Shown here piece by piece: positions 6,118-38,680 of a stretch of DNA of 64,000 nt. The notes under the pieces were generated by a model. It searched no databases. It saw nothing but the letters and a program-made list of their open reading frames with translations, and was not told the origin of the DNA. Within the stretch, counting starts at the first letter, position 1; the number at the start of each line of letters is the position of its first letter. Origin of the DNA: Sumerlaeia bacterium (GTDB lineage Bacteria; Sumerlaeota; Sumerlaeia; SLMS01; JAHLLQ01); NCBI GenBank assembly GCA_040219255.1, contig JAVJSW010000068.1, positions 273,800 to 337,799 of the forward strand, in the 5' to 3' direction. A program made the position numbers and the translations under genes.

Positions 6118-7077
6118 ATGGCTTTGCAAGTCTCCAACCTGCCCGAAATCCTCTCCGCCGGCACGCAAGTGGTGGTGGAGAAAACCCTGCGTGGCGCCGC
6201 CGGAGAGCCCATCTGTCCGCAGGGCGCCGTTGGCGTGGTTGTCGGCGAACCGGACACGGCGGACGGCCTGTACCGCGTGCGCTTTCCCAACGCCTACGAG
6301 GCCGATCTGGCGCGGGGCGACTTCGACGTGCGCAAGCATTACCAGCGCCGAAGTCTCGGCGACCTCGCGGGGCTGAACGACGGCGTCGATTGGCGGCGCC
6401 ACATCATCTATCGCTGCGTGATCGGTTCACGGGCCTATGGGCTGGACACGGACGACAGCGACACCGACCGGCGCGGAATTTTCCTGCCCCCGGCACGGCT
6501 GCATTGGAGTTTGGCCGGTGTGCCGGAGCAGATCGAGGACCACCCACGCCAGGAATGCTTCTGGGAACTCGAGAAGTTCCTGACGCTGGCGCTCAAGGCC
6601 AACCCCAACGTCCTCGAAGTCCTGCACTCGGATCTCGTCGAGCACTGCGCGCCCATCGCCGGCGAGCTGTGCGCCATGCGCGGGGCGTTTCTGTCGCGGC
6701 TCGTCTATCAGACTTACAACGGATACGTGCTATCCCAGTTCAAGAAAATGCGCCACGATCTCGACACCCGGGGCGAAGTGCGATGGAAGCACGCCATGCA
6801 CTTGATCCGCCTGCTGTGGAGCGGCAAGGAACTGGTTCGCACCGGCCAGATGGTGGTCCGCATCCATGACGGCGCGATGGTGGAGCGGCTGCTGGCCATC
6901 AAGCGCGGCGAGTGGACCTTCGAAGCCGTGGAGCAGTGGCGCCAGCGGCTCCACCGCGAGTTCGACGACGCCCTGGCGCGGACGCCGCTGCCGGAACTTC
7001 CCGACATTCGCCGCGCCGACGCGTTCCTGATTCGCGCCCGCCACCGCATGACCGAAACCGAGGAGATTGCCCGATGA
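6118..7077 (+). CDS. Predicted nucleotidyltransferase (Pol-beta superfamily, PF10127/RlaP-like) with an extra N-terminal beta domain
   Basis: GSRAYGLDTDDSDTDRRG (GS..DxD), KANPNVLEVL, KHAMHLIRLL, and LLAIKRGE. Confidence 0.88.
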   Translation: MALQVSNLPEILSAGTQVVVEKTLRGAAGEPICPQGAVGVVVGEPDTADGLYRVRFPNAYEADLARGDFDVRKHYQRRSLGDLAGLNDGVDWRRHIIYRCVIGSRAYGLDTDDSDTDRRGIFLPPARLHWSLAGVPEQIEDHPRQECFWELEKFLTLALKANPNVLEVLHSDLVEHCAPIAGELCAMRGAFLSRLVYQTYNGYVLSQFKKMRHDLDTRGEVRWKHAMHLIRLLWSGKELVRTGQMVVRIHDGAMVERLLAIKRGEWTFEAVEQWRQRLHREFDDALARTPLPELPDIRRADAFLIRARHRMTETEEIAR

Positions 7078-7853
7078 TTGTCGATGCCACCGGCCCGATT
7101 CCCACCGAAGACCTGCGCCGCGTCGCAGCCGCCCATCCCTACGCGCTGCTGTTCGCCACCGTCAGCGGCTCGCACATCTACGGCTTTCCCTCGCCCGATT
7201 CGGATTTCGACCTGCGGGGCGTACACGTGCTGCCGCTGCCCGAGGTCATCGGCCTCGCCACGCCGGATGAAACCATCGAGCAGGGGGCGTTTCGCGCCGG
7301 TCTCGAGATGGACCTCGTCACGCATGATGTGGCGAAGTTCTGCCGCCTGCTGCTCAAGCCCAACGGCTACGTGCTGGAACAACTCATGTCGCCCCTGGTG
7401 ATCCAGACGTCGTCCGAGCATCAAGAGCTGAAAGCCATGGCCCACGTTCTGATCACGCGCTACCACGCGCGGCACTACGAGGGATTCTTCCATTCGCAGT
7501 GGAAGCTCTTCCAACGTGACGAACCGCGCAAAGTCAAGCCGCTGCTGTATTGCTACCGGGTGCTGATGACCGGCATCCATCTGATGCGCCGCAGCGACCT
7601 GGAGCCGAACCTGGCGATCCTGGCTGAGGAATACGGCCTGCGTTACATCCCGGACTTGATCGAGCGCAAACGCGCCGGGGGCGAACACGGCACCCTCGGC
7701 GGCGCCGACTTCGCCTTCCACGAACGCGAACTGCACCGCCTCCTGGAGGAACTGCGCGACGAAGCGGACCGCTCCTACCTGCCGGAAGAACCGCTCTGCC
7801 GCGAGGACATGAACGACTTCCTGCTACGGGTGCGGATGAAGTTTCGGGAGTAG
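7074..7853 (+). CDS. Second predicted nucleotidyltransferase (PF10127/RlaP/YcgL-like)
   Basis: ATGA overlap with the upstream gene; SGSHIYGFPSPDSDFDLRG, NGYVLEQLMSP, and KPLLYCYRVLMTGIHL. Confidence 0.88.
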   Translation: MIVDATGPIPTEDLRRVAAAHPYALLFATVSGSHIYGFPSPDSDFDLRGVHVLPLPEVIGLATPDETIEQGAFRAGLEMDLVTHDVAKFCRLLLKPNGYVLEQLMSPLVIQTSSEHQELKAMAHVLITRYHARHYEGFFHSQWKLFQRDEPRKVKPLLYCYRVLMTGIHLMRRSDLEPNLAILAEEYGLRYIPDLIERKRAGGEHGTLGGADFAFHERELHRLLEELRDEADRSYLPEEPLCREDMNDFLLRVRMKFRE

Positions 7854-7984
7854 ATGGGGGGAATGGGCGCTCCGCGGGCACAAGAATGGAAAAATACTCG
7901 CCCTCCCTGTATACTCAAAAGAAGCCGACTCAAAAGTGCATTCTCCCGCCTAGAATAAAATAATCCACCGCGCGCATTTTTCTC

Positions 7985-8012
7985 TTGCGCGGCAGGGCGA
8001 AATCAGTACTGT
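7985..8012 (+). promoter_or_regulatory. Possible sigma70-type promoter
   Basis: TTGCGC-16 bp-TACTGT following an AT-rich tract (7886-7984), upstream of the small ORF and tRNA-like region. Confidence 0.3.
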
Positions 8013-8088
8013 CCGCTCCCACGCCGCAGAGGAAAACGCACGTTTTCGCCGCGGCACTCCACTCCCTCCGCAAAGGGGACGCAGCACT

Positions 8089-8322
8089 ATGATCCGGACA
8101 GACGTCATCAATCGCATCGCCGCAGCCGCTCAGGTTCTTCGGAATCTGGATCGGGTCCTCGGCCTCGTCGTCACCGGCTTCGCCCGCAGTCGCTCGCGCT
8201 CCTTTGCTCTCGCGAGTTCCCAAGGCGACGCCGGATACCACGGAGGAGCCCCGATGGGTTGCCCCGGACGGAAACCGGCCGGCATGGAACGTTGGCGAGA
8301 ACGAGGGATGCGCGAGGCGTAA
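8089..8322 (+). CDS. Small hypothetical protein or leader ORF (77 aa)
   Basis: AAAGGGGAC RBS-like sequence before ATG 8089; no recognisable family. Confidence 0.35.
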   Translation: MIRTDVINRIAAAAQVLRNLDRVLGLVVTGFARSRSRSFALASSQGDAGYHGGAPMGCPGRKPAGMERWRERGMREA

Positions 8323-8713
8323 GCCGCCTCTTTTCCGCACACAATCCCCATCGACTCGCGGTTCCAGGCTTCGGCTTCGAACGGCACGCTCGCATTCGCT
8401 GGCCCGCGCCACGCGCCTGCGACACGCAACGCGCTCTCCTTGTCCTTCACGCCTCCGCCCACGGCGGTTCGCCGTCTTGGGTCTATGCTGAACGAATAAG
8501 CCGCGCGCCGCGTCCCGCCGTCTTCGCAGCCCCCCGCCACGCCGCCGCTTGAACCCTCCGTTGCCGCAAGGGGTCCATCGGGCCGCTTTGTGACATCCGG
8601 GAACCCGATCCCGCGCGATCACTAGTTTACTTGAACTCCTGACGCTTATGTGTGTTTGGAGACCAGAAAAACCATATTCGAATGGAAAAGAAAGAGTGTT
8701 TGATCGCACGTTC

Positions 8714-8903
8714 GTAGTTCCGCCTTCAGGCGGAAAAGATCCGTGCAGAACGCATTGTCGCTTTTCACATGGGGACCGGTATCCCAACTGGCAGAGGACG
8801 GCGCCTCAGAAGCGCTGAGTTGCAGGTTCGACTCCCGCCCGGTTCACCAAAAGCTTTGTGCGGCCAAGGGCCGCCTCCTTCCGCCTGAAGGCGGGACGAC
8901 GAG
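8714..8903. repeat. Inverted pair of GTAG-type REP palindromes bracketing tRNA-Leu
   Basis: GTAGTTCCGCCTTCAGGCGGAA (8714-8735) and TTCCGCCTGAAGGCGGGACGAC (8879-8900). Confidence 0.7.
8773..8849 (+). tRNA. tRNA-Leu(CAG), atypical short variable loop
   Basis: Acceptor GGACCGG/CCGGTTC; D arm TCC..GGA; anticodon arm GGCGC-CTCAGAA-GCGCT; 5-nt variable loop; T arm GCAGG-TTCGACT-CCCGC (one A.C mismatch); A73; encoded CCA. Confidence 0.85.
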
Positions 8904-8914
8904 CACGTTACACA

Positions 8915-9076
8915 TCTCCGGCCCCGGTGGCCGCGGTGGTTTTTTCCGAGTCCGAGAGACCGGAGCGTTGAAATCTTGGGCAGCGTCTGGCGGATACCGT
9001 CTCCCCGCCGGACAATCAACGCCCCGGTTCCTCCCGGAGCCTCGGCAAAACCCCCCGCGACCTCCGGGGCTGGGGA
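8915..9076 (+). ncRNA. ~160-nt imperfect rod hairpin, candidate structured RNA
   Basis: 8915-8950 pairs with 9041-9076 (about 31 of 36 positions counting G.U); 8951-8971 pairs with 9016-9038; GTCTGGCGG pairs with CCGCCGGAC at the apex. Strand assumed from the flanking tRNAs. Confidence 0.5.
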
Positions 9077-9117
9077 AGCGCAAGGCGAGAATGAACGATG
9101 AGCGGCGACAAAACTTG

Positions 9118-9170
9118 CCGGGTGCCGGGCGTGGGACTCTCCTTTCCCACCCACGTGGGCCGGCGCCCGG
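9118..9170. other. GC-rich hairpin between the rod RNA and the second tRNA
   Basis: CCGGGTGCCGG pairs with CCGGCGCCCGG, enclosing GTGGGA/TCCCAC. Confidence 0.4.
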
Positions 9171-9241
9171 CCAGGGGGAGAGGGGGGCCAAGCGCAAGCT
9201 GAACGACCGGGCAGAGAAGGGCACGCCCCGGCGTGCTCTGC

Positions 9242-9319
9242 CGGGCCCTGGCTCAACCGGTAGAGCATCCGCCTGTTATAAGCGGAAGGTTCCGGGTTCG
9301 ATCCCCGGGGGCCCAGCCA
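9242..9319 (+). tRNA. tRNA-Asn-like gene with a 9-nt anticodon loop (atypical or pseudo-tRNA)
   Basis: CGGGCCC/GGGCCCA acceptor (C1:A72 mismatch); GCTC/GAGC D stem; TCCGC-CTGTTATAA-GCGGA; CCGGG-TTCGATC-CCCGG; G73; CCA. Confidence 0.75.
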
Positions 9320-9454
9320 TCGTATGTCCGTTCGCGGAAGACGTCGGAACTCTGGCCCGCCCACTGCCGCCAAGCTTTCTCGCTCTCGGGTTCGGCAGAC
9401 TCGCCGGTCATTGTGTCTTCCCACCGCCTTCGACCCGTTCGTGGCGGGGCGGGG

Positions 9455-9925
9455 TCAATCCTCGAGATAGTCTTCCCGCGAGAGCACTTCGAGAACATAG
9501 TACACGCATTTGCGAAGTAAGAAAGGGCTTTGCGCTTCGAAGTCACCGGCGGTGATGAAGGCTCGGGCCCCGGCGCGGGTTCGGGCGGAGAAGTCTTCCC
9601 AACTCTCGGCGCCTTCGTCCCACATCGGATCGGGGGTCCACCGGGGCATGGTCTTGCGTTTGGACTTGTCCAGCAGATAGGCGCTGGCGGTTTGGCCCGG
9701 GTGGGCGAATTCGACCAGCAGGCAGGGCTGGACGGCGAGGATGGCACAGCCGTCCCGCGCCAAAAAGTCCAGGCCGGCGAGCGCGTCGTCCCGGCGCCAG
9801 GCGCTCCGGCCATCGGGCAGGGGAAAGGCGCGAGCCTGGAACCGGGCGGCGCTGTCGGGCGCCGGCGGCAGCCGTTTCCCGCTCTCCCGCAGCAGATAAA
9901 GCATCATTCGAATCGCAGCGATCAT
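9455..9925 (-). CDS. Hypothetical protein, possibly Imm40-like immunity protein
   Basis: AWRRDDALAGLDFLARDGCAILA and ESWEDFSARTRAGARAFI recall the Imm40 pattern; resemblance judged from memory. Confidence 0.5.
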   Translation of the reverse strand: MIAAIRMMLYLLRESGKRLPPAPDSAARFQARAFPLPDGRSAWRRDDALAGLDFLARDGCAILAVQPCLLVEFAHPGQTASAYLLDKSKRKTMPRWTPDPMWDEGAESWEDFSARTRAGARAFITAGDFEAQSPFLLRKCVYYVLEVLSREDYLED

Positions 9926-37294: not shown

Positions 37295-37334
37295 GGAATT
37301 TACCTTCAAGAATTATCAGAAATCAAGGAACACT

Positions 37335-38680
37335 TTAATCGATCAACTCATAGTATCCATACGTCTCAAGTCTCTTCACCTCATTAGGGAAAGAAAAATA
37401 GTGAACGGAGCCATCGGTTGCACCAAAAATCGAAGCAGGAGAAGTCTCTATGGAACCAAGTCCCCATAGAATTCCGTCCCCTTTTATCCACTCAACGTAA
37501 CTTACTTCACGCTCGTCTTCTACCAACCTAAAGTTCGCCGAAGGAACGTCTAGCAAAACTATCCAAACAGATTTATTCTCCTTGCCATTATTATATTTTA
37601 TAGCTCTACCCACTTCCTTCCAAACATCGCCGTATTTAGCGTCGATTCTTGGACAGAGGACAGAGATTGACGGCAACTTAGGAGGAGATTTGGGGCCCCA
37701 TTTGGTATCACACCAAGACCCGCATGGAAGGGCTTTGGGACAGTCGACTCCATCAAGAGCAGCGGCGGTATCTTCTACTGCATCATTAAAACCTGTTCCA
37801 GCCTCATGAACTATTTGCCCCATGATCGCAGCGGATGATCCAAAGCAATTTCTTAGTGCACAAGCCAAGAAACAATGAACCCATTTGTCGTCTCGTCCTC
37901 TTTCTCTGCCCTTCTTGTTTGCCCATCTCTTCCAATAGCTGGGAGAGAAACGGTTGAGGCTTATACATGGAGACCATAAGTTGCCTGTGGGGTCTGCGCG
38001 AAGAATTGGTTCATGTTCTGCGAAGGAGTAGGCATCCTCAATGTATGCTGGATACGGCGCCTCCGACAAAAACACCCCAATCTTCCCATTGTACCACCTC
38101 TGATACATATAAACCAACCCCACATCCCCATCGAACTCCTTGGTGAAGGACCCCCTGAAATGAACCACTTCCTTACTTCTCCATTAATCGTGGAGCACAG
38201 GCGCTGAGTTGTCCAGCTTGATCACCGCCAGACCAGTGCCGCCCTCTATTAGTCCTGTGGTTCACATCGGGGGCTCTTTGTGTTATGTCCCCAGCCACTC
38301 TGGCCGTTGGCGTTGGCCCAGAGGCCCGTGGCCCAGTTGTCCATCACGTTGCCGAAGGCGTCCTTGTACACTTCGCGCGAGAAGGCGCCGCTCGGGTTCG
38401 TGACGGTCATGACCGAGCCGACCTGGTCGTAGTGGAACCACGAGTCGGTGACGGCCGGCAGGGCAGCGACGGCGGGCTGGATAACGCGGTTGCGCAGGAT
38501 GTGGGCGATGCTGCCGGGGCCGATGACGTTGTGCTCGACGGTGACGGCGTTCGAGAGGCGGACGTCGTCCATATACAGGACCGGGTCGTAGGATTGAGGC
38601 CGGACCACAAGCCCATCGGTATCGACCCAGGTTTCGGAGGAATAGGCTTCGAAATCGGCGGCGACGTCGCGGGGCGGCGG
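37335..38680 (-). pseudogene. Headless Rhs core plus C-terminal toxin, interrupted by a 137-bp insertion
   Basis: WFHYDQVGSVMTVTNPSG..YKDAFGN..GWGHNTK joins KEFDGDVGLVYMYQRWY..ADPTG. The low-GC tail has DKWVHCFLAC. The 5' boundary is approximate. Confidence 0.82.
38144..38280. mobile_element. 137-bp MITE or IS remnant with IS3-like imperfect terminal inverted repeats
   Basis: Left end TGAAGGACCCCCTGAAATGAACCAC; right end (reverse complement) CAAAGAGCCCCCGATGTGAACCAC. Removing it restores GGA CAT AAC ACC AAG GAG TTC (GHNTKEF). Confidence 0.75.

Follow-up and report, generated by a model that had tools for sequence, protein, structure and literature searches.

The locus considered here raises the question of whether genes for RNA repair and spare, oddly shaped tRNA genes that lie side by side in a bacterial genome work together or are neighbors by accident. 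We analyzed a window of 64,000 nucleotides from a Sumerlaeia bacterium (contig JAVJSW010000068.1 of assembly GCA_040219255.1). Near its start, at positions 6118–9454, an overlapping pair of nucleotidyltransferase genes, NT1 and NT2, is followed by 1.6 kb without coding signal that contains two tRNAs on the same strand. The gene map rests on the open reading frame listing, Pfam, and codon-position GC, which were concordant. An earlier note on this DNA, made from the letters alone, had proposed a compact unit for RNA repair or defense against ribotoxins, in which the RNAs serve as substrates, decoys, or replacements. We favor, with a rough probability of 0.45, the reading that an RNA-repair pair stands beside the two-gene remnant of a horizontally acquired set of spare tRNAs. 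The locus joins two bacterial features that recur together but are separable.

A paired form of the RlaP nucleotidyltransferase

NT1 (6118–7077, plus strand, 319 amino acids) and NT2 (7074–7853, plus strand, 259 amino acids) overlap by 4 nt, the end of the first gene with the start of the second. Both match the RlaP nucleotidyltransferase family PF10127, with E values of 6.9e-40 and 3.5e-48 and scores of 137.7 and 164.9 bits, respectively, against a curated cut-off of 23 bits; the description of two translationally coupled nucleotidyltransferases of this family in the earlier note is therefore accurate. The Pol-beta catalytic signature, consisting of a G-S loop and D-x-D carboxylates, is kept in both paralogues. 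In NT1, G103-S104 and D115-x-D117 are at least 95% conserved across 65 homologues, and the same holds for S31-G32 and D44-x-D46 of NT2 across 81 sequences. An AlphaFold 2 (AF2) model of NT1 (predicted local distance difference test score, pLDDT, 91) combines a fold like that of kanamycin nucleotidyltransferase and HalB with a small SH3/Tudor-like beta-barrel of about 90 amino acids at the N-terminus. The two paralogues have diverged, with 23%–33% identity in local tblastn alignments of each query to the gene of the other. NCBIfam, PADLOC, and sequence searches of the PDB returned no match for NT1 or NT2.

The pair is common. NT2 has thousands of close homologues and is 55%–64% identical to those in myxobacteria, cyanobacteria, planctomycetes, and acidobacteria. 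We compared 80 homologous loci from myxobacteria, planctomycetes, cyanobacteria, acidobacteria, verrucomicrobia, chloroflexi, and others. In 67 of them, representing at least six phyla, NT1 preceded NT2 on the same strand, and several of the 13 loci that lacked this arrangement were contig ends. Judged from sequence, NT1 and NT2 are a co-inherited paralogous RlaP pair of an RNA 3'-end repair family. The genes that accompany the pair elsewhere match the proposed RNA-repair role of RlaP: a Pnkp gene with kinase, phosphoesterase, and PNKP ligase domains adjoins it in 13 of the 80 loci, a Thg1-like gene lies near it in four, and Tpt1/KptA, NUDIX, and ADP-ribosylglycohydrolase genes occur near it in two loci each. 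No third gene was universal across the 80 loci. The assignment of the pair to an RNA-repair family, also made in the earlier note, holds up well against these neighbors. Between the source genome (G000) and a genome of the same family (G006), the pairs are 46% identical and not syntenic, an identity lower than that to other phyla, which points to separate acquisitions.

In two of the 80 loci, a gene is inserted between NT1 and NT2 (L060:5259–6005 and L078:5336–5989). The first encodes an ATP-grasp protein of the R2K clade by Pfam, and the L078 open reading frame on its own had no Pfam match. An ATP-grasp domain in this position could act as a ligase partner.

Two Pseudomonas proteins, PfRlaP and PaRlaP, add one or two nucleoside monophosphates (NMPs) to an RNA 3'-OH in vitro, and RlaP has been proposed as an antidote to ribotoxins that excise nucleotides (PMC12776372), restoring those removed by RloC-type nucleases (PMC12776372; PMC7824862). 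The window pair resembles these characterized proteins in Pfam family, in Pol-beta motifs, and in having relatives among RNA-repair genes, and by analogy it would be expected to add one or two NMPs before ligation. The characterized RlaP genes, as presented in PMC12776372, are single genes between rtcB and rtcA, whereas those in the window are coupled, co-inherited paralogues. NT1 also has an extra N-terminal barrel relative to characterized RlaP, and no ligase was present among the open reading frames tested around the pair (Pfam, positions 917–23700 of the window). In the literature searched, the supplements of PMC12776372 and PMC8421152 aside, we found no prior description of paired RlaP genes. 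The paired form, usually without an adjoining ligase, is nonetheless widespread in planctomycetes, cyanobacteria, acidobacteria, myxobacteria, and verrucomicrobia and is uncharacterized, in a family that was only recently assigned an activity, the addition of one or two nucleotides to broken RNA.

Two supernumerary tRNAs of array type

The stretch downstream of NT2 (7854–9454) showed no sign of encoding protein. Codon-position GC is near equal across approximately 7780–9340, compared with a third-position GC content (GC3) of 0.78–0.89 in flanking genes, and none of the five open reading frames in the stretch had a Pfam match. On these grounds, a hidden protein gene was ruled out, as the earlier note had supposed when it saw no convincing reading frame in about 1.6 kb. 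The stretch is bounded by a convergent open reading frame of 156 amino acids (9455–9925, minus strand), which by its codon bias (GC3 0.78) is probably a real gene; it belongs to no known family, with no match in Pfam, NCBIfam, or PADLOC.

ARAGORN and Rfam RF00005 agreed on exactly two tRNAs in the stretch, both on the plus strand, and an unfiltered search with a tRNA model of our own revealed no further tRNA remnants in 7700–9700. Both are atypical, as first noted from the letters, the one in carrying a leucine anticodon on a short-armed body and the other in its nine-nucleotide anticodon loop. The encoded CCA that the earlier note had mentioned is present in both, but it is ordinary here, as canonical tRNAs of the source genome likewise encode CCA.

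The first of these, tRNA 1 (8773–8849), has a CAG anticodon, a 77-nt body, a variable loop of 5 nt, A73, and the encoded CCA. Its D arm comprises three pairs and a 13–22 mismatch, as in bacterial tRNA-Leu, and U8, A14, G18-G19, U33, and the T-loop are intact. With R1, a covariance model that we built from seven short-arm tRNA-Leu sequences, it scored 87.1 bits. We classify it as a putative type I (short variable arm) tRNA-Leu. It is supernumerary, because a canonical 87-nt long-arm tRNA-Leu(CAG) is present on another contig, C75; canonical tRNA-Asn and two tRNA-Lys genes are also found elsewhere in the genome.

Short-arm tRNA-Leu genes are sporadic in the phylum and frequent in Pirellulales. 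R1 matches exceeded ordinary tRNAs in two of 75 genomes of the phylum, in a search that also covered the window's order (25 genomes): G000 with one copy and G006 with three. The G006 genes (UAG, UAA, and GAG) stand in tandem on contig C20, in addition to five canonical long-arm tRNA-Leu genes. Among Pirellulales, 47 of 151 genomes had R1 matches above ordinary tRNAs, and the 29 short-arm loci that we examined there held 3–29 tRNAs each, mostly as dense arrays. When the best 150 R1 matches were aligned, the top 63 all carried leucine anticodons and measured 74–79 nt; all five leucine anticodons are represented in the class, and across 60 distinct sequences, 18 of the 21 cloverleaf pairs showed compensatory changes. 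These patterns show that short-arm tRNA-Leu is a structurally constrained class that is common in Pirellulales tRNA arrays. In arrays L158–L187, the UAA, UAG, CAA, and GAG tRNA-Leu genes are short-armed (73–80 nt) and the CAG genes usually long (83–86 nt; exceptions L175 and L184), unlike the window, where the short-arm tRNA-Leu is the CAG one. In the papers searched, short-arm tRNA-Leu was nowhere described as characteristic of L-arrays, and the main text of PMC8421152, its supplements aside, mentions neither a variable arm nor tRNALeu.

A type I tRNA-Leu(CAA) is known from Streptomyces coelicolor, where it is the only CAA isoacceptor and attempts to delete it failed (PMC6614811). It shares with tRNA 1 a short variable loop, A73, and coexistence with long-arm tRNA-Leu (PMC6614811). 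Unlike it, tRNA 1 duplicates a canonical CAG isoacceptor and has relatives that sit in mobile arrays. Within that report, leucylation of type I tRNA-Leu is shown for S. coelicolor only (PMC6614811), and the wider class raises the question of how leucyl-tRNA synthetase outside Streptomyces charges such tRNAs.

The second gene, tRNA 2 (9242–9319), has a body of lysine or asparagine type and aligned to the Rfam model at 54.5 bits with a 2-nt insert in the anticodon loop. A perfect 5-bp stem, UCCGC/GCGGA, encloses the nine-base loop CUGUUAUAA. U8, A14, G18-G19, and the T loop are intact, position 73 is G, CCA is encoded, and the acceptor end carries a C1xA72 mismatch. It is the only confident tRNA of the source genome with a loop other than 7 nt. 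ARAGORN labels it tRNA-Stop(tta) because the loop is centered, which places G at position 33 and U at position 37; in the other register, C32-U33-GUU-A37 is canonical and is followed by two extra bases. In a comparison with 553 array tRNAs and the genome's own tRNAs, its nearest relatives were array tRNA-Lys(UUU) genes, with an alignment score of 36; the tRNA-Asn of the genome itself reached 27. In anticodon stem and flanks, tRNA 2 is identical to these array genes, and the loops differ (CUGUUAUAA versus CUUUUAA). The tRNA-Asn genes of Pirellulales arrays are built very differently. These 76-nt tRNA-Asn(GUU) genes, such as L159:2388–2463 and L157:3091–3166, have an apparently lengthened D arm (GGGCCTGTG..TACAGGC) that is conserved across about 20 Pirellulales arrays.

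We searched for counterparts of the expanded loop in arrays and in metagenomes. A 7-nt loop fits 539 of the 553 array tRNAs; 12 others had apparent 9- or 11-nt loops, and the ten of these that were examined read as 7-nt loops whose closing pair is unpaired. One metagenome pattern gave no matches and a second gave six, all to a single unrelated element that is not a tRNA according to ARAGORN, and as each pattern required the loop sequence exactly, counterparts that have diverged would have escaped notice. With no counterpart found, the 2-nt expansion is a singleton. Either an insertion recently disabled a gene that is intact in other respects, or the expansion is a novelty of this lineage. If expressed, tRNA 2 would be either a natural tRNA with an extended anticodon or a tRNA mimic that does not decode. 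The metagenome loci L140–L145 (positions approximately 1975–2070) share a conserved element with a tRNA-like T arm and CTGTTATAA; it adjoins tRNA-Ile(UAU) and tRNA-Met genes and is not called by ARAGORN.

Both tRNAs thus belong with the supernumerary ones that make up long tRNA arrays, in keeping with the earlier note, which had brought up cryptic tRNA arrays. L-arrays are horizontally transferred, supernumerary, and reported amid RNA-processing genes, including rtcB (PMC8421152). The window tRNAs are like them in being supernumerary, sporadic, and non-canonical in shape. They differ in that they encode CCA, which Pirellulales array tRNAs do not, and in that no homing endonuclease is near them. 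An array unit has been defined as at least 20 tRNA genes at no fewer than two per kb (PMC4758250), and with only two tRNAs in 1.6 kb, the stretch falls outside that definition.

Possible linkage between the pair and tRNAs

The reading that we favor would combine repair with resupply. By analogy with characterized RlaP, NT1 and NT2 would act together to extend the 3'-OH of cleaved RNA by one or two nucleotides, and their chief substrate would be tRNA 5' halves that are short of nucleotides after attack by an anticodon nuclease. A ligase would then reseal the full-length molecule; here, this may be the lone RtcB of the source genome, which is encoded amid housekeeping genes on a different contig. 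The two downstream tRNAs would be the remnant, or the seed, of a horizontally acquired spare set of L-array type. If they are expressed and charged, such spares, with altered shapes or loops, could replace or outlast the attacked housekeeping tRNAs alongside the healing of broken ones by the pair, and the adjacency would have a function and not be a mere leftover. In phages, tRNAs can evade anticodon nucleases through altered anticodon loops (PMC10264068); they too are spare tRNAs with loops unlike those of the host and offer a rationale for odd tRNAs beside repair genes. They differ in carrying substitutions in 7-nt loops, whereas tRNA 2 is chromosomal and has a 2-nt insertion (PMC10264068). 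Plausibly, the locus is a reduced instance of the known pairing of repair and resupply. It would then add to the known cases of repair enzymes beside spare odd-shaped tRNAs, this one from a phylum that is small and poorly sampled, and as such would support the view that bacteria pair tRNA resupply with repair against ribotoxins.

A parallel comes from two Pirellulales genomes, Adhaeretor mobilis and G207, in which a 30-tRNA array lies within about 5 kb upstream of the pair, with matching order and strand. In A. mobilis, the array is followed on that strand by an SPFH/Band-7 gene, NT1, a DUF1559 gene, NT2, and an unknown gene, with Tpt1, Macro, and NUDIX genes alongside on the other strand. In G207, the array is followed on the same strand by an open reading frame, then by NT1 and NT2. 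Because the two arrays share gene order, they may reflect a single event. For comparison, chance would place the pair behind such an array in approximately 0.3% of genomes, a rough estimate based on a 20-kb neighborhood in a 6–7-Mb genome.

The main rival is that the genes are chance neighbors, which we consider a serious possibility, if somewhat short of an even one. The pair would then be a free-standing repair system and the tRNAs relics of a decayed acquired cluster, at least tRNA 2 being dead. It is the main rival because the linkage was not conserved in any comparison that we made, and several observations count for it and against the reading that we favor. Not one of the 80 homologous loci had a tRNA on the same strand beyond NT2. 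Only 18 of them had a tRNA of any kind within about 6 kb (663 kb of flanks in total), which is about chance level. In G006, the pair is on contig C33 and the short-arm tRNAs are on C20, and the 14 kb surrounding the pair are free of tRNAs. PF10127 was found in 25 of the 47 Pirellulales genomes with short-arm tRNA-Leu genes, and in 23 of these 25, the two features either fell on separate contigs or had more than 200 kb between them. No ligase, kinase/phosphatase, SPFH/Band_7, or RtcB gene occurred among the window reading frames tested. The tRNAs have flaws of their own. The T stem of tRNA 1 contains an A-C mismatch, its position 37 is A, and it scores only 40.5 bits with Rfam. The 9-nt loop of tRNA 2, for which no counterpart was found elsewhere, may leave it useless for decoding. 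As for the spacer, its DNA had no match in 40 relatives beyond fragments of tRNA and of repetitive extragenic palindrome (REP)-like repeats. A pair of these repeats (8712–8735 and 8879–8902; 24-nt arms, 92% complementary) is inverted around tRNA 1, a sign of a recombination-prone spacer.

The earlier note had suggested a check for synteny between the pair and odd tRNAs in relatives; it was absent in G006 and in the 23 Pirellulales genomes. Of its compact repair unit, the association with tRNAs finds an echo in the two 30-tRNA arrays, and the idea of a dedicated, conserved unit is not supported, with none in 80. Other evidence speaks against chance neighbors. Both tRNAs keep every checked nucleotide of the tertiary contacts, and their stems are paired except for one mismatch each, which is unexpected for drifting pseudogenes. 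Both are on the strand of the nucleotidyltransferase operon, and the two Pirellulales arrays exceed the chance estimate above. Absence of conservation counts for little as evidence, because the phylum is thinly sampled and offers no other genome of this genus, and in fragmented assemblies of metagenome-assembled grade, separate contigs exclude adjacency only as far as the contigs reach.

Of the 18 loci with a tRNA nearby, ten have a same-strand tRNA-Val(CAC) upstream, 0.6–4.2 kb from the pair; these are cyanobacterial in nine cases (L024, L030, L032, L033, L035, L036, L038, L049, and L057) and planctomycete in one (L042). They probably reflect, for the most part, shared synteny of one cyanobacterial lineage.

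Dedicated RNAs that do not take part in translation, but serve the repair enzymes or an attacking anticodon nuclease as cofactor, scaffold, or decoy, are an improbable explanation. Burroughs and Aravind (2016) reportedly described modules of Ro with Y RNA (YrlA), and modules of SPFH/Band-7 proteins with a tRNA-like RNA in RtcB operons. The likeness to the present locus is a tRNA-shaped RNA beside RNA-repair enzymes, and tRNA 2, which lacks a normal 7-nt loop and is otherwise well formed, would suit such a role. It resembles tRNA-Lys(UUU), the target of PrrC and RloC (PMC12776372). A long stable hairpin also lies between the tRNAs: an imperfect structure of 149 nt (8922–9070, plus strand) with a minimum free energy of -82.4 kcal/mol (z -5.2), which none of 200 shuffled sequences equaled. 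The earlier note had listed several strong hairpins in the stretch; the others tested were no better than shuffles (z -1.2 to -2.7).

Unlike the Ro/Y-RNA and SPFH modules, however, the locus lacks rtcB, shows no match to TROVE, and includes no SPFH gene among the reading frames tested; the lack of a visible rtcB or TROVE gene had been remarked on before. The A. mobilis locus does have an SPFH gene between array and NT1. A TROVE profile (PF05731) that matched two of 14 reference genomes as a control had no match in the 92%-complete source genome; the PF16542 (Pnkp) profile likewise had none, but its control matched no reference genome, and the result is uninformative. The window RNAs are complete cloverleaf tRNAs with CCA, unlike those of Ro/Y-RNA modules. 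At gathering scores, Rfam found only the tRNAs in the stretch, and at E values up to 10, there was no Y RNA, YrlA, or other catalogued RNA in 7700–9700; the extra matches were sub-threshold ones to eukaryotic miRNA and snoRNA families and a plastid ycf2 leader. The analogy with Ro and Y RNA must accordingly be given up. The hairpin matched no Rfam family above the gathering score and was not conserved in relatives, and neither it nor the RNAs recur beside any of the 80 pairs. Finally, the class to which tRNA 1 belongs behaves in arrays as ordinary decoding tRNAs, with five leucine anticodons. The simplest guess for the hairpin is a terminator or a processing site between the tRNAs.

Less probable still is a reading in which the expanded loop makes tRNA 2 a damage-activated "pro-tRNA" or, alternatively, a nuclease trap. 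As a pro-tRNA, it would not decode until an anticodon nuclease cut it and trimmed one or two nucleotides; the RlaP pair would then heal it and RtcB seal it to a normal 7-nt loop, such that the attack itself switches the spare on. The sole hint is that the loop exceeds the norm by exactly two nucleotides and RlaP adds one or two. Equally remote is recoding, in which tRNA 2 would read UAA or, through its 9-nt loop, a codon of four or five bases; engineered tRNAs with 8–9-nt loops are capable of such extended decoding. In its favor, ARAGORN places UUA in a 7-nt loop with a C-A closing pair, and the rest of the molecule is intact. Against it, this register breaks near-universal rules with G at 33 and U at 37, no homologue with the same loop was found, NT2 (the one gene whose stop codon was read directly) ends in TAG, and the window reading frames are intact under table 11.

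Spacer signals, neighboring genes, and other tRNAs

Shortly after the NT2 stop codon, at 7887–7915 on the plus strand, a consensus scan found a weak sigma-70-like promoter candidate, TGGAAA-17-TATACT (one site versus 0.2 expected; a consensus match only). A terminator-like hairpin with a T-run (8919–8945) overlaps the base of the long hairpin. The REP-like core CCGCCT[GAAG/TCAG]GCGG occurs 18 times in the genome, with copies on contigs C12, C33, C34, C37, C39, and C60. A plasmid collection gave no match to the whole spacer, and a phage collection, searched with 8700–9330, gave generic tRNA matches only.

A mobile island was considered and rejected: the reading frames run against Pfam, all within 917–23700, included no integrase, transposase, or phage family, and around the pair there was no synteny with G006. 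The families that were found include YicC, a T2SS F protein, a UDG-family protein, a flavoprotein disulfide reductase, a Crp-type regulator, an FG-GAP/ASPIC protein, and PfkB, among others.

Two further tRNAs deserve mention. No tRNA-Leu(UAG) or tRNA-Leu(GAG) was found in the 92%-complete source genome. On its contig C60, at 37328–37412 (L189:1329–1413), it has a long-arm tRNA with a leucine-type D arm, A73, and the anticodon UGC, which corresponds to the alanine codon GCA (Rfam 52.6 bits). Matching 85-nt tRNAs in four genomes of the same family, 74%–84% identical, have the leucine anticodon UAG, and the C60 gene could be a leucine-charged misreader of alanine codons, a dead gene, or an assembly error. 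The other is a tRNA-Arg(UCG), an anticodon uncommon in bacteria, in genome G012 (C177:7341–7417; L112:1501–1577). At 71.7 bits, it is the best R1 match of the order after the tRNA-Leu genes of G000 and G006.

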